A stretch of 64,000 bases of DNA from Escherichia coli O127:H6 str. E2348/69 (GTDB lineage: Bacteria; Pseudomonadota; Gammaproteobacteria; Enterobacterales; Enterobacteriaceae): NCBI RefSeq assembly GCF_000026545.1, contig NC_011601.1; one strand, given 5' to 3'. Made by a program: the position numbers and the translations under genes. Each line of letters opens with the position of its first letter. The stretch's first letter is position 1. The notes under the pieces are model-generated. The model was not told the DNA's origin. It ran no database searches and saw only the letters and a list, made by a program, of their open reading frames with translations. Positions 1 through 13,374 of the stretch are shown piece after piece.

Positions 1-497
1 TTATTGCCACTGCCAATACGCGCGATCGCGGCGTCAATGAAATGAGTGCCGCGCTAAAGCGTCGCTTCGATTTTGAAACTGTCTTTCCGATTATGGATTT
101 CGCCCAGGAGCTGGAGCTTGTCGCCAGTGCTTCGGCGCGTTTGCTGGCCCATAGCGGCATTCCGCATAAAGTGCCTGACGCGGTACTGGAGTTACTGGTC
201 CGCACCTTTCGCGATCTGCGTGCCAACGGCGAAAAGAAAACGTCAATGGATACACTAACAGCGATTATGTCCACCGCTGAAGCCGTGAACGTGGCCCACT
301 CGGTGGGCGTCCGCGCCTGGTTTTTAGCGAATCGAGCAGGTGAGCCAGCCGATCTGGTGGACTGTATTGCCGGAACCATCGTCAAAGATAACGAAGAAGA
401 TCGCGCGCGCCTGCGCCGTTACTTCGAACAACGTGTTGCTACACATAAAGAAGCTCACTGGCAGGCTTATTATCAAGCTCGCCACCGCCTGCCGTGA
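1..497 (+). CDS. yehL: MoxR-family AAA+ ATPase, C-terminal part (5' end lies outside the window; stop at 495-497)
   Basis: Open frame from the window edge to TGA 495-497; recognised as the C-terminus of the MoxR-like ATPase that heads the yehLMPQ operon; the next gene starts 10 nt downstream. Confidence 0.8.
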   Translation, partial: IATANTRDRGVNEMSAALKRRFDFETVFPIMDFAQELELVASASARLLAHSGIPHKVPDAVLELLVRTFRDLRANGEKKTSMDTLTAIMSTAEAVNVAHSVGVRAWFLANRAGEPADLVDCIAGTIVKDNEEDRARLRRYFEQRVATHKEAHWQAYYQARHRLP

Positions 498-507
498 GGA
501 AAGATGT

Positions 508-2787
508 ATGAGCGAGCCGTTAATTGTCGGCATCCGGCATCATAGCCCGGCCTGCGCCCGGCTGGTGAAATCGTTAATCGAAAGCCAGCGGCCACGATAC
601 GTATTGATTGAAGGCCCGGCTGATTTTAATGACCGGGTAGACGAACTGTTTTTAGCCCACCAGCTTCCGGTAGCTATTTACAGTTATTGCCAGTATCAGG
701 ACGGTGCGGCCCCCGGGCGTGGTGCCTGGACGCCATTTGCTGAATTTTCGCCGGAGTGGCAGGCGCTACAAGCCGCACGTCGTATTCAGGCACAAACTTA
801 CTTCATCGATTTGCCTTGCTGGGCGCAGAGTGAAGAAGAAGACGAATCACCCGATACGCAAGATGACAGCCAGACCTTACTGCTGCGTGCCACCTGCATG
901 GATAACAGCGATACCCTGTGGGATCACTTATTCGAAGATGAAAGCCAGCAAACTGCATTACCCTCTACGCTGGCGCACTATTTTGCCCAACTGCGGGGCG
1001 ATTCCCCCGGAGATGCTCTCAATCGTCAGCGCGAAGCCTTTATGGCTCGCTGGATTACATGGGCGATGCAGCAAAACAATGGCGACGTGTTAGTCGTCTG
1101 CGGCGGCTGGCACGCTCCTGCACTGGCAAAAATGTGGCGCGAATGCCCGCAGGAAATTAACAAGCCAGAATTGCCCTCGCTGGCAGATGCCGTTACAGGT
1201 TGTTATCTCACACCCTACAGTGAAAAGCGCCTTGATGTGCTGGCAGGATACCTTTCCGGAATGCCTGCCCCGGTCTGGCAAAACTGGTGCTGGCAGTGTG
1301 GCTTACAGCAGGCAGGTGAACAACTGCTGAAAACGGTTCTTACCCGTTTGCGCCAGCACAAATTGCCCGCTTCTACCGCTGATATGGCTGCCGCTCATCT
1401 GCATGCGATGGCACTGGCACAGTTGCGCGGCCATACACTACCTCTACGCACTGACTGGCTGGATGCCATAGCTGGTTCGCTGATTAAAGAAGCCTTGAAC
1501 GCGCCGTTGCCGTGGAGCTACCGCGGGGTCATTAATCCCGATACCGATCCGATTCTGGTAACGTTGATAGACACATTAGCGGGTGACGGATTCGGTAAAC
1601 TTTCCCCTTCTACGCCACAACCGCCTCTGCCAAAAGATGTCACCTGCGAACTGGAACGTACCGGAATCTCTCTTCCGGCGGAGCTTACCTTAAATCGCTT
1701 TACCCCCGATGGACTGGCGCAAAGTCAGGTGTTACATCGGTTGGCAATACTGGAGATCCCAGGGGTTGTGCGCCAGCAGGGAAGTACACTGTCACTTGCA
1801 GGCAACGGTGAAGAATGCTGGAAATTAACCCGCCCGCTTAGCCAGCATGCTGCATTGATTGAGGCCGCCTGCTTTGGCGCCACACTCCAGGAAGCCGCAC
1901 GCCATAAATTAGAAGCCGATATGCTGGACGCGGGTGGAATCGGCTGTATCACCACATGTCTTAGCCAGGCAGCGTTAGCGGGTCTGGCGTCTTTCAGTCA
2001 ACAATTACTGGAACAACTCACATTATTAATCGCCCAGGAAAATCAATTCGCCGAAATGGGCCAGGCGCTGGAAGTGCTATATGCCTTATGGCGGTTGGAT
2101 GAAATCAGCGGTATGCAAGGCGCGCAGATATTACAAACGACGTTATGCGCGGCTATCGATCGCACACTCTGGCTATGTGAATCCAACGGCAGACCGGATG
2201 AAAAGGAGTTTCACGCTCACCTGCATAGCTGGCAGGCGCTTTGCCATATCCTGCGCGATCTACATAGCGGCGTTAATTTACCCGGCGTTTCGCTTTCTGC
2301 GGCAGTAGCCTTACTGGAGCGCCGCAGTCAGGCGATTCATGCCCCGGCGCTGGATCGCGGCGCGACTCTTGGCGCACTGATGCGTCTGGAACATCCCAAC
2401 GCCAGTGCCGAAGCGGCGCTGACGATGCTGGCGCAGTTATCCCCGGCACAATCCGGCGAGGCGCTGCACGGTTTGCTGGCGCTGGCCCGCCATCAACTGG
2501 CCTGTCAGCCGGTATTTATCGCCGGTTTCAGCAGTCATTTAAATCAACTGAGTGATGCCGATTTTATCAATGCCCTGCCCGATTTACGCGCGGCGATGGC
2601 CTGGCTACCACCACGAGAACGCGGGACGCTGGCGCATCAGGTGCTTGAGCATTATCAACTGGCGCAACTTCCCGTTTCGGCACTGCAAATGCCGTTGCAT
2701 TGTCCACCACAAGCCATTGCACATCATCAACAACTCGAACAGCAGGCACTGGCATCGCTGCAATACTGGGGAGTTTTCCATGTCTGA
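508..2787 (+). CDS. yehM: Uncharacterized 759-aa protein, second gene of the yehLMPQ operon
   Basis: ATG 508 preceded by GAGGA at 496-500; the track ORF 340-2787 is in the same frame and I take its upstream part as non-coding read-through; stop overlaps the yehP start. Confidence 0.85.
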   Translation: MSEPLIVGIRHHSPACARLVKSLIESQRPRYVLIEGPADFNDRVDELFLAHQLPVAIYSYCQYQDGAAPGRGAWTPFAEFSPEWQALQAARRIQAQTYFIDLPCWAQSEEEDESPDTQDDSQTLLLRATCMDNSDTLWDHLFEDESQQTALPSTLAHYFAQLRGDSPGDALNRQREAFMARWITWAMQQNNGDVLVVCGGWHAPALAKMWRECPQEINKPELPSLADAVTGCYLTPYSEKRLDVLAGYLSGMPAPVWQNWCWQCGLQQAGEQLLKTVLTRLRQHKLPASTADMAAAHLHAMALAQLRGHTLPLRTDWLDAIAGSLIKEALNAPLPWSYRGVINPDTDPILVTLIDTLAGDGFGKLSPSTPQPPLPKDVTCELERTGISLPAELTLNRFTPDGLAQSQVLHRLAILEIPGVVRQQGSTLSLAGNGEECWKLTRPLSQHAALIEAACFGATLQEAARHKLEADMLDAGGIGCITTCLSQAALAGLASFSQQLLEQLTLLIAQENQFAEMGQALEVLYALWRLDEISGMQGAQILQTTLCAAIDRTLWLCESNGRPDEKEFHAHLHSWQALCHILRDLHSGVNLPGVSLSAAVALLERRSQAIHAPALDRGATLGALMRLEHPNASAEAALTMLAQLSPAQSGEALHGLLALARHQLACQPVFIAGFSSHLNQLSDADFINALPDLRAAMAWLPPRERGTLAHQVLEHYQLAQLPVSALQMPLHCPPQAIAHHQQLEQQALASLQYWGVFHV

Positions 2788-3916
2788 ACTGAACGATCTT
2801 CTGACCACCCGTGAGCTACAACGCTGGCGATTAATTCTTGGCGAAGCGGCAGAAACGACGCTTTGTGGGCTGGATGACAACGCCCGGCAGATAGACCACG
2901 CGCTGGAGTGGCTGTATGGGCGCGATCCTGAACGGCTCCAGCGTGGTGAACGCTCTGGTGGATTAGGTGGCTCAAATCTCACCACCCCTGAGTGGATCAA
3001 CAGTATTCACACGCTGTTTCCGCAACGGGTGATCGAGCGGCTGGAAAGCGATGCCGTGCTGCGCTACGGCATTGAAGATGTGGTGACGAATCTCGACGTG
3101 CTGGAACGTATGCAGCCTTCTGAAAGCCTGCTACGCGCCGTTTTGCACACTAAACATCTGATGAATCCCGAAGTACTGGCTGCCGCCCGCCGGATAGTGC
3201 ACCAGGTTGTTGAAGAGATTATGGCGCGACTGGCAAAGGAAGTTCGTCAGGCTTTTTCTGGAGTACGCGATCGCCGTCGCCGCTCATTTATTCCACTGGC
3301 GCGAAACTTTGATTTCAAAAGTACTCTGCGCGCCAACCTGCAACACTGGCACCCGCAACACGGCAAGTTGTATATCGAATCCCCCCGCTTTAACAGCCGC
3401 ATTAAACGCCATAGCGAACAATGGCAACTGGTCCTACTGGTTGATCAAAGCGGATCAATGGTGGACTCGGTGATCCACTCCGCAGTGATGGCGGCCTGTT
3501 TATGGCAGTTACCCGGTATTCGTACCCATCTGGTGGCGTTTGACACCAGCGTCGTCGATCTCACGGCAGACGTTGTCGATCCGGTAGAATTATTAATGAA
3601 AGTGCAATTAGGCGGCGGGACCAATATCGCCAGTGCCGTGGAGTATGGTCGGCAACTTATTGAACAACCAGCGAAAAGCGTCATTATTCTCGTGAGCGAT
3701 TTTTATGAAGGTGGGTCATCATCATTGCTGACGCATCAGGTGAAAAAGTGTGTCCAGAGCGGCATCAAAGTGCTGGGGCTGGCAGCGCTCGACAGCACCG
3801 CAACGCCTTGCTATGACCGCGATATGGCCCAGGCGCTGGTTAATGTCGGCGCACAAATAGCCGCAATGACACCGGGCGAGCTGGCTTCCTGGCTTGCGGA
3901 GAATCTTCAGTCATGA
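2780..3916 (+). CDS. yehP: von Willebrand factor A (VWA) domain protein with a MIDAS motif
   Basis: ATG 2780 overlaps the yehM stop (ATGTCTGA); 378 aa; DQSGS motif at residues 222-226 (nt 3443-3457) sits after a hydrophobic strand (LVLLV), as expected for a MIDAS site. Confidence 0.85.
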   Translation: MSELNDLLTTRELQRWRLILGEAAETTLCGLDDNARQIDHALEWLYGRDPERLQRGERSGGLGGSNLTTPEWINSIHTLFPQRVIERLESDAVLRYGIEDVVTNLDVLERMQPSESLLRAVLHTKHLMNPEVLAAARRIVHQVVEEIMARLAKEVRQAFSGVRDRRRRSFIPLARNFDFKSTLRANLQHWHPQHGKLYIESPRFNSRIKRHSEQWQLVLLVDQSGSMVDSVIHSAVMAACLWQLPGIRTHLVAFDTSVVDLTADVVDPVELLMKVQLGGGTNIASAVEYGRQLIEQPAKSVIILVSDFYEGGSSSLLTHQVKKCVQSGIKVLGLAALDSTATPCYDRDMAQALVNVGAQIAAMTPGELASWLAENLQS

Positions 3917-5916
3917 ATTCACGACGTCCGGAATTATTAGAACTGACACCACAGGCACTGACGGCGTTAAGCAATGCCGGTTTTGTTAAGCGCAGCCTTA
4001 AGGAACTGGAAAATGGCAACGTCCCGGAAATCAGTCATGAGAACGGCGCTTTAATCGCCACCTTCAGTGACGGTGTCCGTACCCAGCTGGCGAACGACCA
4101 GGCACTGAAAGAGGCTCAGTGCACCTGCGGGGCCAGCGGCATGTGCCGTCATCGCGTGATGCTGGTGTTAAGTTATCAACGACTTTGTGCCACCGCCCAG
4201 CCTACGGAAAAAAAAGAAGAAGAGTGGGATCCGGCAATCTGGCTGAAAGAACTGGCTACCCTGCCCGATGCCACCCGCAAACGCGCGCAGGCGCTGGTCG
4301 CTAAAGGCATCACCATTGAGTTGTTCTGTGCGCCTGGCGAAATTCCCTCTGCCCGATTACCGATGAGCGATGTGCGTTTTTATTCCCGCAGCAGCATTCG
4401 CTTCGCACGCTGTGATTGCATTGAAGGCACACTTTGCGAACATGTCGCACTGGCTGTGCAAGCCTTCGTCGAGGCCAAAACTCAGCAAGCGGAATTTACT
4501 CATTTAATCTGGCAGATGCGCAGTGAACACGCCACATCATCTGATGATCCGTTTGCCAGCGAAGAAGGCAAAACGTGTCGTCAATATGTTCAGCAATTAA
4601 GCCAGGCATTATGGCTGGGCGGGATAAGTCAACCGCCAATCCATTACGAGGCCGCTTTCAGTCGCGCGCAGCAAGCGGCAGAACGCTGCAACTGGCGATG
4701 GGTGAGTGAATCGCTACGGCAATTGCGCGCCAGTGTTGATGCCTTCCACGCCCGTGCCAGCCACTACCATGCCGGAGAATGCTTACGTCAGCTTGCGGCA
4801 TTAAACAGTCGATTAAATTGCGCACAAAAGATGGCGCGGCGCGACAGTGTTGGTGAAGTTCCTCCTGTGCCCTGGCGCACGGTCGTTGGCGCTGACATTG
4901 CCGGAGAAGCAAAACTTGATCATCTGCGGCTGGTGTCTTTAGGTATGCGTTGCTGGCAGGATATTGAGCAGTATGGTTTACGCATCTGGTTTACCGATCC
5001 CGACACAGGAAGTATTTTGCATCTTTCGCGTAGTTGGCAGAGAAGCGAACAGGAAAACTCACCGGCAGCGACGCGTCGGCTGTTTAGTTTTCAGGCTGGC
5101 GCACTGGCAGGTGGGCAAATTGTTTCACAAGCTGCAAAACGCAGTGCCGATGGCGAGCTGCTGTTAGCGACCCGTAACCGCTTGAGTAGTGTTGTTCCAC
5201 TGTCGCCAGACGCCTGGCAAATGTTGAGCGCGCCGTTGCGCCAGCCGGGCATTGTGGCTTTGCGGGAATATTTACGCCAGCGTCCCCCCGCCTGCATACG
5301 ACCACTCAACCAGGTCGATAACTTATTTATTCTGCCGGTAGCGGAGTGTATTTCGCTCGGTTGGGATAGCAGCCGCCAGACGCTGGATGCGCAGGTAATC
5401 AGCGGCGAAGGGGAAGATAATGTGCTGACGTTATCCCTTCCGGCATCTGCCTGTTCTCCTTTTGCCGTTGAACGCATGGCGGCGCTTTTGCAACAAACAG
5501 ACGACCCCGTGAGTCTGGTTTCTGGCTTTGTCAGTTTTGTAGAGGGGCAATTGACACTGGAACCACGGGTGATGATGACAAAAACCCGCGCCTGGGCGCT
5601 GGACGCAGAAACTGCGCCTGTGGCACCGCTACCTTCTGCCAGCGTTCTGCCTGTGCCGCCTACCGCTCATCAGTTGCTGATGCGCTGCCAGGCGTTACTT
5701 ATTCAACTGCTCCATAACGGCTGGCGCTATCAGGAACAGAGTGCTATTGGTGAGGCAGAGTTGCTGGCGAATGACCTCACCGCGGTGGGTTTTTATCGGC
5801 TGGCACATGTGTTGGGACAATTTCGTAATACAGAAAGCGAGGCACGGGTAGAAGCAATGAATAACGGTGTTTTACTTTGCGAACAATTATTCCCCATGCT
5901 TCAGCAACAAGGATGA
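3913..5916 (+). CDS. yehQ: SWIM zinc-finger domain protein
   Basis: ATG 3913 overlaps the yehP stop (ATGA); two CxCx5CxH motifs at nt 4120-4152 and 4411-4443; 667 aa if this start is used, but the start is uncertain. Confidence 0.75.
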   Translation: MNSRRPELLELTPQALTALSNAGFVKRSLKELENGNVPEISHENGALIATFSDGVRTQLANDQALKEAQCTCGASGMCRHRVMLVLSYQRLCATAQPTEKKEEEWDPAIWLKELATLPDATRKRAQALVAKGITIELFCAPGEIPSARLPMSDVRFYSRSSIRFARCDCIEGTLCEHVALAVQAFVEAKTQQAEFTHLIWQMRSEHATSSDDPFASEEGKTCRQYVQQLSQALWLGGISQPPIHYEAAFSRAQQAAERCNWRWVSESLRQLRASVDAFHARASHYHAGECLRQLAALNSRLNCAQKMARRDSVGEVPPVPWRTVVGADIAGEAKLDHLRLVSLGMRCWQDIEQYGLRIWFTDPDTGSILHLSRSWQRSEQENSPAATRRLFSFQAGALAGGQIVSQAAKRSADGELLLATRNRLSSVVPLSPDAWQMLSAPLRQPGIVALREYLRQRPPACIRPLNQVDNLFILPVAECISLGWDSSRQTLDAQVISGEGEDNVLTLSLPASACSPFAVERMAALLQQTDDPVSLVSGFVSFVEGQLTLEPRVMMTKTRAWALDAETAPVAPLPSASVLPVPPTAHQLLMRCQALLIQLLHNGWRYQEQSAIGEAELLANDLTAVGFYRLAHVLGQFRNTESEARVEAMNNGVLLCEQLFPMLQQQG

Positions 5917-6040
5917 AATAGTGCTTTTTATTAAGAGTTCTACTCCTGTTCCGGACTGCTCACGCCACAGTATTAGGCATATCCTATATAGCCCCTGGTG
6001 AGAGTCACCAGTTCCTTGATTAAATAAAATGGAGTTTTAC

Positions 6041-6502
6041 ATGAAGGCTTTCAATAAGCTGTTTTCCCTTGTTGTTGCATCTGTTCTGGTTTTCTCTCTT
6101 GCTGGCTGCGGTGACAAAGAAGAATCAAAGAAATTCAGCGCCAATCTGAACGGCACTGAAATTGCCATTACCTATGTCTACAAAGGTGACAAGGTGCTTA
6201 AGCAATCTTCTGAAACCAAAATTCAATTTGCCTCCATTGGTGCAACCACCAAAGAAGATGCCGCCAGGACACTTGAGCCGTTAAGCGCTAAATACAAAAA
6301 CATCGCGGGTGTTGAAGAAAAATTAACCTATACCGATACCTACGCGCAGGAAAACGTGACTATTGATATGGAAAAAGTGGATTTTAACGCCCTGCAGGGT
6401 ATTTCAGGAATCAACGTTTCTGCTGAAGATGCTAAAAAAGGTATCACTATGGCGCAAATGGAACTGGTGATGAAAGCCGCTGGTTTTAAAGAAGTGAAAT
6501 AA
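6041..6502 (+). CDS. yehR: Lipoprotein (signal peptide with lipobox LAGC)
   Basis: ATG 6041 with GGAG 6 nt upstream; N-terminus MKAFNKLFSLVVASVLVFSLAGC is a typical lipoprotein signal; 153 aa. Confidence 0.85.
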   Translation: MKAFNKLFSLVVASVLVFSLAGCGDKEESKKFSANLNGTEIAITYVYKGDKVLKQSSETKIQFASIGATTKEDAARTLEPLSAKYKNIAGVEEKLTYTDTYAQENVTIDMEKVDFNALQGISGINVSAEDAKKGITMAQMELVMKAAGFKEVK

Positions 6503-6508
6503 TCTGTC

Positions 6509-6533
6509 GGCGGCCATGTTTCGCATGGCCGCC
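6509..6533. terminator. Perfect 10-bp inverted repeat (GGCGGCCATG / CATGGCCGCC, 5-nt loop) between convergent yehR and yehS
   Basis: Read directly from the sequence; no clear U-tract on either strand, so termination is inferred from position only. Confidence 0.45.
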
Positions 6534-6542
6534 ATACCCGTC

Positions 6543-7013
6543 TTAGCTTTTCTTCACATGCTGGCGCGCTGCCAGTCCACGCAGAAAATAACGTAAAAAT
6601 TGATCGCCGCATTCGCGGAAGTTTTTATGATCCGGTGCACGCATCATCGCCGTAATTTCCGGCATCGAAACGCGGAACTGCTGTTCGGTGAGGATTGCCA
6701 GAATGTCATCGGTTTTAAGCGAAAACGCGATGCGTAATTTTTTCAGCACGATGTTGTTATTAATGCGACGTTCCGGCTCCAGTGCCAGAGCAGACTCATC
6801 CTTGCCGCGTTTTTCATAAATCAGGCCATTGAGGAATGAAGACAAAACAATGTCCGGACAACGCTGAAAACCCTCTTCGTCTTCTTTACGTAGCCAGACG
6901 GCGATCTGTTCCGCGGTGGCTTCGACATTACCCAGCGCCAGAATACGCACCAGGTCATTATTATTGGCTTTCAAAATGTAGCGCACGCTGCGCAGAATAT
7001 CGTTACTTAGCAT
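6543..7013 (-). CDS. yehS: Uncharacterized protein, immediately downstream of btsR
   Basis: ORF on the minus strand; start placed at the Met giving MLSNDILRSV (156 aa); the track ORF extends 19 codons further upstream. Confidence 0.75.
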   Translation of the reverse strand: MLSNDILRSVRYILKANNNDLVRILALGNVEATAEQIAVWLRKEDEEGFQRCPDIVLSSFLNGLIYEKRGKDESALALEPERRINNNIVLKKLRIAFSLKTDDILAILTEQQFRVSMPEITAMMRAPDHKNFRECGDQFLRYFLRGLAARQHVKKS

Positions 7014-7059
7014 GAGGCCTTCAGGTGTTGATGAGGCAAAAAGCCATTTTAGCAGTCTT

Positions 7060-7779
7060 TTACAGGCCAATCGCCTCTTTTAAGCTTTTCAGATAACGGC
7101 GGCTGACCGGCACGGTTAAGCCATTACGCAAAATCAACTCGGCCTGGCCGTTATCTTCCAGACGGATCTCCTGTAAATGCGCGAGGTTAACCAGATACTG
7201 ACGATGGCAGCGCAGTAGTGGTGTACGACTTTCCAGGGTACGTAATGTCAGTTCGGTAAAGCCCTCTTTCCCTTCGTGACTGGTAACGTAGACACCGCTC
7301 ATCCGACTGCTGACAAATGCCACATCTTTCATTTGCAGCAAATAAATCCGACTATGCCCCGTACAAGGGATAAATTTCAGCGCCTGTTGATTTTCCGGTA
7401 ACAACGAAACATCCTGCTTGCTGCGCTCCTGACGCAATCGCGCCAGCGTTTTCTCCAGTCGCGCTTCATCAATTGGCTTCAGCAGATAATCAAAGGCATG
7501 TTCTTCAAAGGCTTTAATGGCGTATTCGTCAAACGCGGTGAGAAAAACAATATACGGGCGATGTTCCGGGTCGAGCATCCCCACCATTTCCAGACCACTG
7601 ATGCGCGGCATCTGGATATCGAGAAACAGCACATCCGGGCGCAGTTTATGCACCGCGCCGATCCCTTCTACGGCGTTTGAACACTCTCCAACGATTTCAA
7701 TATCGCTCTGCTCCTGCAAAAATACGCGCAGGTTCTCCCGTGCTAACGGTTCATCATCGACAATTAAGACTTTAATCAT
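7060..7779 (-). CDS. btsR: LytTR-family response regulator (receiver domain plus LytTR DNA-binding domain)
   Basis: N-terminus [17 protein letters not shown] is a receiver domain; 239 aa; start overlaps the btsS stop (ATGA). Confidence 0.9.
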
Positions 7780-9461
7780 GCCTCGTCCCTCCATGGTAGT
7801 CGTAACGTTATTCGGGTGTAACTATCAGGCTCACAGGCGACGCTTATCCCATAGTCATCGCCAAACCGTTCACGTAAACGCTTATCCACCAGATTCATCC
7901 CCAGCCCACTGGCATTGGTTACCGGTTGATACAAACCGGCATTGTCTTCGATCTCCAGCATCAAATGTTGCCCCTCACGTCGGGCGCTGATTGCCACTCG
8001 CCCTGTATCCAGCAGTTGTGATGTCCCATGTTTAATGGCGTTTTCCACTATCGGTTGCAGGGTAAACGCGGGCAATTGCTGCTGGGATAATTCTTGCGGA
8101 ATAGCAATGTTGACCTGCAACCGCGACTGGAAGCGCGCCTTTTCAATTTGCAGATAAGCGTTCACATGTTCAATTTCGTCGGCGAGAGTAACAAACTCCG
8201 AAGGCCGCTTTAAGTTTTTGCGGAAAAAAGTAGAAAGATACTGCACCAGCTGGCTGGCCTGTTCGCTGTCGCGGCGGATCACCGCTTTAATGGTGTTAAG
8301 CGCATTAAACAAAAAATGGGGATTCACCTGGGCGTGAAGCAGTTTGATCTCTGACTGGGTGAGCATCGCTTTTTGCCGCTCATATTGCCCGGCGAGGATC
8401 TGCGCCGAAAGCAGTTGCGCAATCCCCTCGCCCAGCGTGCGGTTGATTGAACTGAATAAACGGTTTTTGGCCTCATACAATTTGATGGTACCCATCACTC
8501 GCTGATTTTCACCACGCAACGGAATGACCAGCGTCGACCCCAGTTTGCATTGCGGATGCAAAGAGCAACGGTAAGGCACTTCGTTGCCATCAGCGTAGAC
8601 CACTTCACCGGTTTCAATCGCTTTTAAGGTATAAGTCGAAGAAATCGGTTTGCCGGGTAAATGGTGGTCGTCACCAATTCCGGTAAAGGCCAGCAATTTC
8701 TCTCGATCGGTAATCGCGACTGCACCAATATCCAGCTCCTGATACAGCACCTGTGCCACTTTCATGCTGTTCACTTCGTTAAACCCCTGGCGCAAAATGC
8801 CTTCCGTCGAGGCCGCCACTTTCAGCGCAGTGGCAGAAAAAGCCGAAGTGTATTTTTCAAACATCGCGCGTTTATCGAGCAATATACGCATAAACAGTGC
8901 CGCGCCGACGGTATTGGTGACCATCATTGGCGCAGCAATATTACTCACCAGACGCACCGCATCTTCATAAGGTCGGGCGATCGCCAGGATAATCAACATT
9001 TGCACCATTTCAGCGACGAACGTGACGGCACCGGCGGTAATGGGGTTAAAGACTTTATCAGTGCGCCCGCGACGGATCAGGATGCTGTGTACCATGCCAC
9101 CGAGCAATCCTTCAACGATGGTCGAGATCATGCAACTTAGCGCGGTCATGCCCCCCATCGAATATCGATGTAACCCGCCGGTCAGACCAACCAGCCCACC
9201 GACGACCGGACCGCCGAGTAAGCCGCCCATTACCGCACCTATCGCACGGGTATTGGCAATAGAATCGTCAATGTGCAACCCAAACCAGGTGCCCATGATG
9301 CAGAAGATGGAAAAGACGATGTAGCAGAGAAATTTATGCGGCAGACGAACCGTGACCTGCATTAACGGTATGAATAATGGCGTTTTACTCATTAACCACG
9401 CAATGACTAAAAAAACGCACATCTGCTGAAGCAGCAGCAACACCAGATTAAAATCGTACAT
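7776..9461 (-). CDS. btsS: LytS-type membrane sensor histidine kinase
   Basis: Multi-pass hydrophobic N-terminus followed by a histidine-kinase core; 561 aa from the Met giving [11 protein letters not shown]. Confidence 0.9.
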
Positions 9462-9682
9462 ACCCGCAAACCACACTTCCCTTTAAAACGCGTAACATAC
9501 ATTGCTTGCGTTTAACTTTCTTTGAACTCTTGCAGAAAAATGAGAATTCGTGAGTACGATCACTCAAAATCGCCTGGCAAAAATAAAATCACCCTATAGA
9601 TGCACAAAAAACAGGCAAAACTACCTGGTTCGCAAAACTGCGTCTAAAGTTAAACCGGGACCTCGCGAGCAAGGGTGAGACG

Positions 9683-12224: not shown

Positions 12225-13374
12225 TACGTTTCACCTTCAGCAGTGCGATAAGCAAATCGAACAGCGCGTCGGTAAGCACCGCCAGAACAATTACCGGGAT
12301 CACCCCCAGCAACACTAAATCAATGGCACTGCTTAGCAGCCCCTGGAAAACCAGCGCACCAAAACCGCCTGCGCCGATTAACGCCGCAATCACCGCCATG
12401 CCAACGGTTTGTACCATCACCACCCGCAGGCTGTGCAGAAATACCGGTAACGCCAGCGGTAACTGAACATGCAGGAAACGCTGCACCCCGCTCATCCCCA
12501 TCGCTCTGGCGCTCTCCAGCACATCGCGCGGGATCTGGTTCAAGCCGACTACTACGCCGCGCACCAGCGGCAGCAAGGCATAGAGCACCAGCGCAATCAG
12601 TGCGGGTGTCATTCCGGTTCCTGCTATGCCGAGCATTCCCAGCCACGGAAAGGCCGTAACCAGCGCGGCAAGCGGCGCAATCAGCAGGCCAAAGAGCGCT
12701 ATCGAAGGCACGGTCTGAATGACATTCAGCAGAGAAAAAATCGCTCCCTGCCGCGCGGTGGAAAAGTAGCACCAGATGCCCAACGGCACACCAATCACTA
12801 ACGCAGGCAGCACCGCACCAAACAGCAACGTCAGATGTTGTGCCAGCGCGTCGTCAAACACATCCTGACGGTTGGCGTATTCTTTCATTAACGAGAGATC
12901 GTTAAGCGTGCCGGAGTACAGCAACCACAGCGGAATAATGGCAATCTGCATATGCAACAACCAGCGCCACAGCGGATGCGTGGAGATTCGGCGGATGGCA
13001 TCGCTACAGGCCAGCAGTGCCAGCGCCGCAGCCAGCCAGAAACCACTGCCGAGGCTGGTACGCGCCAGCGCACTGCCATTTTGCGCCAGTTGTGTCGCCG
13101 CCTTTCCAGCTCCCCACACCAGCAATACGAAGACGAATTGCGCCAGAATGAGTGCAAAAATGCTGCCTTTTTTAGCGGGAATAAAACAGGCTGTCAGCCA
13201 GGCGCAACCAACGCCCACCAGCATCCAGAGAGTTTGCGGCCACAGCTGCCAGAGATGACGCCCCTCACCCGAAACTAAACGATTAGGTGCGTAACTGATA
13301 AACGGCAGCGCCGCTGCGATTGCCGTCAGCAACAGCAGCAGCGCCAGAACAGGATTAATACGGAAATAAGTCAC
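12217..13374 (-). CDS. yehY: ABC transporter permease
   Basis: Hydrophobic multi-pass ORF of 385 aa; overlaps the yehX start by 8 nt. Confidence 0.9.

Follow-up and report, generated by a model that had tools for sequence, protein, structure and literature searches.

Several described systems combine a MoxR-type AAA+ ATPase with a VWA protein. We analysed a locus of this kind, the yehL, yehM, yehP and yehQ genes of Escherichia coli O127:H6 strain E2348/69, which occupies positions 1–5916 of a stretch of 64 000 nucleotides from contig NC_011601.1 (this whole stretch is referred to as the window). The system encoded here is a variant of the known MoxR–VWA kind and lies outside every characterised system. 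Among the described ATPases, RavA has a LARA domain of its own and interacts with LdcI; Nuo is also a known interactor. RavA–ViaA resembles the Yeh locus in that a MoxR AAA+ ATPase is encoded beside a VWA protein in one operon, with the target not encoded alongside (PMC3893208). It differs in belonging to another MoxR subfamily, in comprising two genes and in lacking DUF5682, SWIM/OB and WGR/DUF4132 partners. CoxD–CoxE(–CoxF) of CO dehydrogenase likewise consists of an AAA_5 ATPase and a VWA_CoxE-type protein, and this pair has been proposed as the ancestor of MoxR–vWA switches (PMC7159879). The cox genes sit in the cluster of the enzyme that is matured, whereas the Yeh module was found without enzyme genes in 80 loci.

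Midasin (Rea1), which acts in eukaryotic ribosome assembly, has six fused AAA modules. The logic is similar to that considered here for Yeh: an AAA_5 ring and a MIDAS domain grip a client and pull it off a large assembly. Midasin is a single polypeptide of 4700–4900 residues in solved entries, whereas the Yeh functions are split over separate proteins. The MoxR–vWA ternary conflict systems (Kaur et al., 2020) share with Yeh a conserved MoxR–vWA core, variable faster-evolving partners and scaffolding repeats. However, their third component (VMAP, iSTAND, FtsH or a beta-propeller) is absent from Yeh, where the partners show only the Pfam families DUF4132, WGR, DUF5682 and SWIM, and the Yeh VWA protein does not take part in effector-domain shuffling. 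The survey of these conflict systems mentions neither SWIM, WGR and TraB nor YehL (PMC7159879). Zhang and Aravind (2012) predicted a degradation system whose single operon encodes a MoxR ATPase together with a vWA protein that recruits substrates and a subunit of hydrolase fold, a transglutaminase-like (TGL) peptidase (PMC3495828). This is a precedent for the motor–hydrolase coupling proposed below, although its TGL peptidase is membrane-anchored, while Yeh would carry a cytoplasmic TraB/TIKI/EreA-like domain on a HEAT solenoid together with two further sensor-like proteins.

The first 6 kb of the window are 100% identical to positions 1839095–1845094 of NZ_CP059840.2, an E2348/69 chromosome sequence, where RefSeq annotates yehL, yehM, yehP and yehQ. 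A first, sequence-only reading of the window had described them as four co-directional, tightly coupled genes, separated by a 10-nt gap and two overlaps. Direct reading of the sequence agrees at every junction: 10 nt lie between the yehL stop codon (TGA, 495–497) and the yehM ATG at 508, yehM and yehP overlap by ATGTCTGA (2780–2787), and yehP and yehQ by ATGA (3913–3916). No internal stops are present in the yehM, yehP and yehQ open reading frames (ORFs). The conserved unit consists of five genes and not of four, because a giant WGR/DUF4132 protein (molR/yehI) belongs to it in addition to yehLMPQ. This partner was missed in the sequence-only reading since it sits just upstream of the window, where the annotation lists metG, molR (a DUF4132 pseudogene), yehI (DUF4132, 1208 aa) and the small yehK on the same strand. 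Including yehI, the module comprises about 11 kb and 3400 codons, or about 15 kb when molR is counted as well. At least 80% of the locus is covered in 5204 of 5426 complete E. coli genomes, nearly always as a single chromosomal copy. The GC content of the module genes is 54–55%, compared with 51% for the whole window.

An alignment scan with YehM, using one genome per species (about 100 000 species), gave at least 498 confirmed relatives. Eighty loci from Enterobacterales, Burkholderiales, Neisseriales, Xanthomonadales, Myxococcota and Actinomycetota were fetched, and module homologues were called by tblastn followed by ORF-level blastp with the E. coli proteins as queries. The order L-M-P-Q and the common strand are kept in 73 loci. 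A YehI homologue (DUF4132) accompanies the module in 68, usually directly 5' of yehL but downstream of yehQ in Burkholderia, and a yehP homologue near yehL is conserved in 76. The start/stop overlap is retained at the M-P junction in 65 of 76 loci and at P-Q in 58 of 74, and yehL and yehM overlap or are at most 30 nt apart in 63 of 79. Successive overlaps link all five genes in Lentzea. These loci come from other genera and represent four phyla. The conservation of order, strand and overlap far exceeds chance: the four genes do travel together, and the overlaps travel with them.

The complete set is also found on plasmids. On a linear plasmid of Streptomyces all five genes occur in the usual order (DUF4132, AAA, DUF5682, VWA and a 714-aa protein), on a conjugative plasmid of Sinorhizobium the full set is permuted (AAA, DUF5682, DUF4132, VWA, SWIM), and a mobilizable plasmid of Iodobacter has the Yeh gene order. 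Two independent DUF5682–VWA_CoxE fusion proteins of 1180 aa (P0232) and 1222 aa (P0243) support a physical interaction of YehM with YehP. Single-member 'fusion' proteins from E. coli, P0003 and P0004 among them, were set aside as probable products of misassembly or frameshifts and carry no weight as evidence. At 50% identity, DUF5682 loci form about 3400 clusters.

Clustering of the flanking ORFs from the 80 loci revealed one recurrent additional family only, consisting of same-strand upstream ORFs of about 1000 codons in 15 loci. We take these to be further DUF4132 paralogues; several have an N-terminal WGR domain. No conserved enzyme or cofactor-biosynthesis neighbour emerged from this clustering, which bears out the earlier remark that no target enzyme is encoded beside the operon. 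A functional link to metG, the neighbour in E. coli, was rejected as this neighbourhood is not conserved elsewhere. A mobile-element origin, considered because SWIM also occurs in MuDR transposases, was rejected as the module has no conserved transposase or integrase.

YehL is a MoxR ATPase, as had been read from the sequence. It matches Pfam AAA_5 (residues 79–220, E = 2.6e-34), and among the sequences of solved structures the AAA modules of Midasin are closest (E = 9e-10); the match to bpMoxR is weak (E = 0.002). NCBIfam yielded only weak matches far under the cut-off, to the GvpN, MadB and McrB models. Across 78 orthologues, 41% of the residues are at least 97% conserved, including Walker A (G83EPGTAKS90) and the arginines R205, R218 and R219. 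The pair E156-E157, which we assign to Walker B, is equally conserved. For YehL as an AAA+ ring, we assume the usual hexameric form. The YehL subfamily is one of seven MoxR subfamilies, with YehL as its E. coli member (PMC3893208). The literature agrees with the statement of the sequence-only reading that it is named for this locus and uncharacterised (PMC3893208); it is the sole MoxR subfamily of E. coli never to have been characterised.

YehP, correctly recognised earlier as a VWA protein, matches Pfam VWA_CoxE with an E-value of 2.4e-71. Its MIDAS site is complete (D222-x-S224-x-S226, GGGT281 and D307) and at least 97% conserved in 76 orthologues. NCBIfam matches of YehP are all far under the cut-off, and a search of PDB sequences gave no useful match.

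YehM had been described as a protein without recognisable motif. This does not hold. Although Pfam assigns only DUF5682, a predicted model of the N-terminal alpha/beta domain shares the fold of the TraB/TIKI/ChaN/EreA superfamily, the matches including EreA-like 'succinoglycan biosynthesis' proteins, and the C-terminal two-thirds match HEAT/ARM solenoids, among them TAF6, symplekin and importins. The TIKI/TraB family is marked by two GxxH motifs and one conserved Glu, located at strand ends. The corresponding residues of YehM (G8-x-x-H11, E35 and G199-x-x-H202) are at least 97% conserved in 81 orthologues. In an alignment of eight sequences that adds the variant systems from Deinococcus and Hymenobacter and the second copy in L083 (see below), R10, H11, E35, D101 and G199 do not vary, and seven of the eight rows have H202. 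The Streptomyces row of this alignment is disrupted by a Gly-rich insertion. This homologue, encoded on a Streptomyces plasmid (L091 8989–11754), has a long low-complexity insertion rich in Gly, Leu and Asp in the TraB-like domain, between the conserved Glu and the second GxxH.

The conserved residues of YehM directly follow beta-strands 1, 2, 5 and 6 of the model. Strand ends are the usual place of the active site in alpha/beta enzymes, and we therefore read the N-terminal domain as enzyme-like. With His, Glu, Asp and His invariant at the C-terminal ends of the strands, it is probably a peptidase or esterase, and YehM may act both as a scaffold, through its HEAT-like solenoid, and as an enzymatic subunit. 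Compared with TIKI, TraB, PrgY, ChaN and EreA, YehM alone has the fusion to a solenoid of about 500 residues and the obligate association with a MoxR–VWA pair. A profile search of PDB sequences with YehM returned nothing, and NCBIfam has no family for it. PDB sequence matches to FosA and to a carboxylesterase, which came up in the module-protein and profile searches, were at chance level and were discarded.

YehQ had been read as a SWIM protein, which is correct but incomplete. A SWIM finger is present (Pfam SWIM, E = 7.6e-4), with C70, C72, C78 and H80 of the CxCxnCxH signature invariant. A degenerate second SWIM and a predicted tandem OB module were found in addition (Table 1). The beta-rich module shows a likeness to RPA/POT1-like tandem OB folds by two methods, with Foldseek E-values that are all weaker than 1e-3. 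The likeness to the tandem OB folds of RPA70 DBD-AB, POT1 and HIN is at the level of the fold and is not accompanied by sequence similarity. The N-terminal region resembles ZSWIM8 in fold. Unlike ZSWIM8 and PARP, however, YehQ and MolR are without cullin-binding boxes and a PARP catalytic domain. NCBIfam contains no family for YehQ, and a search of PDB sequences gave no useful match. According to the profile searches, neither YehM nor YehQ falls into a family with a known substrate.

The product of molR starts with a WGR domain (Pfam E = 6.8e-17), which is also found in PARP. By iterative search WGR was found in 58 of 82 loci, mostly at the N-terminus of the DUF4132 protein adjacent to yehL. 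This distribution indicates that the typical partner has the architecture WGR–…–DUF4132 and that YehI, which has a C-terminal DUF4132 and no other domain recognisable by Pfam, is a WGR-less enterobacterial paralogue. There is no NCBIfam family for YehI or YehK, and a PDB sequence search with YehI gave no useful match. A review lists molR among the LexA-regulated genes with a known SOS box (PMC6590174). In the metG–molR spacer, 10 nt upstream of the molR start, we observed the LexA-box-like sequence CTGGATAAAATCACAG (positions 4873–4888 of L001, the E2348/69 locus). Escherichia and Klebsiella grimontii share it as a conserved island, although the rest of the spacer has diverged. In Deinococcus radiodurans, mitomycin C induces the DUF4132 protein DRA0166 and the WGR protein DR2173, and this induction depends on IrrE/DdrO.

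Selection was assessed by comparing E2348/69 with a K-12 derivative, using six neighbouring housekeeping genes as reference. The ratio of nonsynonymous to synonymous substitution rates (dN/dS) is 0.03 for yehL, 0.05 for yehP, 0.11 for yehM and for yehQ, and 0.18 for yehI. It is 0.00–0.07 for the housekeeping neighbours, whose dS is similar to that of the module genes. Low dN/dS together with neighbour-like dS indicates that the module genes are functional and vertically inherited within E. coli. Mean identity to the E. coli proteins is 0.74 for YehL, 0.66 for YehP, 0.47 for YehM and 0.36 for YehQ, so that conservation declines from the motor to the presumed specificity subunits.

Strains differ in the integrity of some genes. 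While yehQ is intact in E2348/69, an internal stop in the K-12 derivative (L002 17913–19913) reduces its product from 667 to 614 aa. The molR gene is fragmented in K-12; in E2348/69 it is frameshifted only about 35 codons before its end. The yehK gene is frameshifted in E2348/69. Broken molR and truncated yehQ mean that screens based on K-12 may be blind to the system, and strains such as E2348/69 are the right background for its study. In the ST131 sublineage L1a of E. coli, the blaCTX-M-15 transposon TnMB1860 is located in the DUF4132 region just upstream, disrupting the partner genes in 184 isolates (PMC9334617).

Taken at the level of sequence, the locus is a five-component, translationally coupled and horizontally mobile module under purifying selection, with a MoxR–VWA pair that looks active. 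The best explanation available, which we put forward tentatively, is that yehLMPQ and molR/yehI encode one multi-subunit, ATP-driven machine built on the MoxR–VWA motor–adaptor pair, in which YehM serves as scaffold and hydrolase, YehQ acts alongside the WGR/DUF4132 proteins as a sensor of nucleic-acid type or as a client, and the motor gates the enzyme. The earlier proposal of an undescribed MoxR–VWA machine stands in its essence, with corrections in the number of genes, the fold of YehM and the OB module of YehQ. Taken together, the domain content (WGR, OB and SWIM), the LexA box upstream of molR and the relatives under DdrO control in Deinococcus suggest an ATP-gated remodelling or cleavage complex linked to nucleic acids or DNA damage. 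In this reading, YehQ and those DUF4132 proteins that bear WGR would confer specificity, or act as sensors, by recognising a nucleic-acid feature such as single-stranded DNA or RNA, or DNA ends.

In such a machine, a nucleic-acid signal would be bound by YehQ and the WGR modules. YehL would then carry out ATP-dependent remodelling through YehP, whose MIDAS site may hold the client. Subsequently, the YehM hydrolase would either be activated or receive a protein to act on, for which the DUF4132 solenoid is one possibility. The module would be wired to the SOS response in enterobacteria by way of the LexA box upstream of molR, and the output could be DNA-damage tolerance or defence against foreign DNA. 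In its most specific form, the proposal is of an undescribed class of bacterial nucleic-acid surveillance machine that is triggered by DNA damage or invading DNA, has PARP-like WGR and RPA/POT1-like OB sensors, a Midasin-like AAA+/MIDAS motor and a TIKI/TraB-like protease, and occurs in E. coli itself but is crippled in K-12. We consider this form unlikely.

A number of points weigh against the proposed machine. OB, SWIM, WGR and HEAT modules may also bind proteins or other ligands; the weak Foldseek values for the YehQ module belong here as well. At the sequence level, YehM matches none of the Pfam families TraB, ChaN and Erythro_esteras. Nor does a TraB/ChaN-like fold prove catalysis by YehM, since the haem-binding protein ChaN has this fold without being an enzyme. 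The active site of YehM is putative. With respect to regulation, no canonical LexA box (CTGT-N8-ACAG) was found in a relevant position upstream of the cluster in 80 other loci, and SOS control may therefore be restricted to enterobacteria. The cited Deinococcus genes are relatives of the partner family and are not shown to lie in a MoxR–VWA–DUF5682 cluster. In E2348/69, the OrzO terminator of a toxin–antitoxin-type locus (see below) precedes yehL by about 100 nt, and the sequence directly upstream of yehL gave no good match to a promoter. Co-regulation of molR with yehLMPQ by read-through from PmolR is thus unproven.

A classical MoxR–VWA maturation chaperone is the strongest of the alternatives, although we regard it as rather doubtful. 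YehL and YehP, aided by YehM, YehQ and YehI, would insert a metal or cofactor into an enzyme encoded elsewhere, or assemble that enzyme. RavA–ViaA, CoxD–CoxE, NorQ–NorD and CbbQ–CbbO are understood in this way, and the CoxE-type VWA family of YehP, the AAA_5 domain of YehL with its sub-threshold matches to GvpN, MadB and McrB, and the historical name 'molybdate metabolism regulator' of the partner family are all in line with it. MoxR members have been described as chaperone-like maturation factors, and the targets of RavA–ViaA are not encoded alongside (PMC3893208). The position of the locus as a vertically inherited, purifying-selected part of the E. coli core chromosome also fits a maturation chaperone. 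However, the 80 loci contain no conserved enzyme or cofactor gene beside the module, and the whole five-gene set moves alone between phyla and onto plasmids, which one would not expect if the chaperone served a host-specific enzyme. Nor do known maturation systems include three large accessory proteins bearing WGR, OB, SWIM and hydrolase-like modules, and molybdenum-cofactor genes were unchanged in the Deinococcus study.

The spread among plasmids and phyla also raises the question of anti-phage or anti-plasmid immunity. As a MoxR–vWA 'threshold switch', the fast-evolving sensors (YehQ and the DUF4132 paralogues) would detect nucleic acid or proteins of an invader, and the ATPase–VWA pair would license the YehM effector, leading to abortive infection or destruction of the invader. 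Such conflict systems are an established concept (PMC7159879). The patchy distribution over distant phyla (at least 498 of about 100 000 species genomes), the copies on mobilizable and conjugative plasmids, the tandem duplication of whole systems, the gradient of conservation from motor to sensors, and the turnover and pseudogenes among the sensor paralogues would suit immunity. So would some neighbours: a type I restriction–modification (R-M) system adjoins the Iodobacter plasmid copy, and the genes bordering the module in Comamonas composti (L046 2221–4329 and 15754–18369) encode a DRT-type reverse transcriptase (UG29-like, E = 3e-48) and an MzaA homologue (E = 6e-78). These two are, however, the only defence-related genes among 27 immediate neighbours in 20 genera, a small sample that had no formal control. 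YehL, YehM, YehP, YehQ, YehI and YehK gave no match to the models of PADLOC-DB v2.0.0, and the Yeh system does not figure among the MoxR–vWA conflict systems surveyed in eLife (PMC7159879). No credible phage-borne copy was found: a search of phage collections gave one unverified metagenomic scaffold, which was disregarded. Moreover, the module occupies one fixed site in 96% of E. coli genomes, with dS like that of its neighbours and no positive selection at gene level. Immunity is accordingly possible, if improbable, and we do not favour it over a DNA-damage-related or other cellular role; mechanistically it overlaps with the five-protein machine that we prefer.

That the cluster is an evolutionary remnant or a coincidence without joint function is very improbable: molR is frameshifted in E2348/69 and broken in K-12, yehK is frameshifted in E2348/69, K-12 yehQ has an internal stop, and the genes are barely mentioned in the literature, with no paper found on the system, but all five genes are under strong purifying selection, order and overlaps are conserved across phyla, catalytic-type residues are invariant and genes have fused.

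We found no literature describing the yehLMPQ system or its function, and the terms DUF5682, DUF5691, PF18934 (DUF5682) and PF13569 (DUF4132) did not occur in a literature of 8 million papers. Nevertheless, the module belongs to the core of the best-studied bacterium, being present in about 96% of complete genomes. Our analysis provides a testable model of the preferred machine: it names five subunits, singles out four residues of YehM as catalytic candidates, predicts that YehQ has a module for nucleic-acid binding and includes an SOS-regulated WGR partner. If the nucleic-acid-sensing interpretation is true, the system would be a new type of ATP-gated response to DNA damage or foreign DNA, and a bacterial counterpart to the Midasin-type logic of AAA+/MIDAS remodelling.

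Table 1. Genes, predicted protein modules and a frameshift cassette of the yeh locus, with positions in the window.
Feature	Residues	Window position	Strand	Remarks
yehL, 3' part	final 164 of 362 codons	1–497	+	MoxR-type AAA+ ATPase, Pfam AAA_5; gene start 592 nt upstream of the window (L001 13409)
yehM	759 aa	508–2787	+	DUF5682; N-terminal domain about aa 1–240 (window 508–1230), C-terminal part about aa 255–755
yehP	378 aa	2780–3916	+	conserved helical N-terminal region; VWA_CoxE aa 151–372 (window 3230–3895)
yehQ	667 aa	3913–5916	+	intact in E2348/69
YehQ SWIM finger 1	56–88	4078–4176	+	Pfam SWIM
YehQ SWIM 2	about 161–184		+	degenerate
YehQ helical bundle	217–312		+	
YehQ beta-rich tandem OB-like module	about 330–560	4900–5592	+	predicted, two methods
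YehQ C-terminal helical bundle	584–666		+	
Cassette prone to +1 ribosomal frameshifting, GTGGAGTATGGTCGGC		3638–3653	+	inside yehP; exact match to published cassette, 0 expected by chance

Some relatives of the module show further arrangements. A contig of GCA_022841245.1 (L083 3227–23468) contains two systems in tandem. The first consists of DUF4132, WGR-DUF4132, AAA_5, a fusion of DUF5682 with VWA and a protein of 665 aa, the second of a 501-aa protein, a HEAT_2 protein, AAA_5, DUF5682 and VWA. A variant architecture without DUF4132 or a YehQ-type protein occurs on plasmids of Deinococcus taeanensis (L085 5759–13805), where SWIM (about 470 aa), DUF5691, AAA, a small ORF, DUF5682 and VWA follow each other, and of Hymenobacter (L092 4183–12422), where the DUF5691 protein has 1009 aa and SWIM is not annotated as a gene of its own. 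Profile and BLAST comparisons detected no relation of YehQ and YehI to the SWIM and DUF5691 proteins of this architecture. On the 77-kb mobilizable plasmid of Iodobacter fluviatilis (L084 18092–21749), a type I R-M system, a PDDEXK nuclease and several insertion sequence (IS) elements adjoin the module; one DUF4132 copy is truncated beside an IS element, and the SWIM gene is split into two ORFs.

Between yehK and yehL, E2348/69 has a zorO–orzO-type type I toxin–antitoxin locus (L001 12889–12978, minus strand, and 13224–13297, plus strand), about 0.7–1.1 kb before position 1 of the window. It comprises a hydrophobic ORF of 29 aa (MDTLTQKLTVLIAVLELLVALLRLIDLLK), divergent promoter-like sites and an Rfam OrzO-P match of 91.5 bits. 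The zorO-type ORF is missing in K-12, whose locus is about 390 bp shorter at this point. An ERIC-like repeat, identified by eye, adjoins zorO–orzO at about L001 12720–12830. Downstream of the module, window positions 6029–9476 contain yehR (lipoprotein YehR), yehS, and btsR and btsS of the BtsSR two-component system. The yehR gene lies on the same strand about 125 nt past yehQ, with no clear terminator between them. Among the 80 loci, yehK and yehR are restricted to Escherichia, apart from a weak yehR match in Klebsiella.

The cassette inside yehP corresponds to the 291st codon as numbered in the FSscan paper, with a predicted frameshift product of 303 aa from which the last 75 aa, the end of the VWA domain, are lost. 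Reporter and mass-spectrometry data have been published for this cassette, and a swarming phenotype has been reported for the yehP knockout (PMC2790909).

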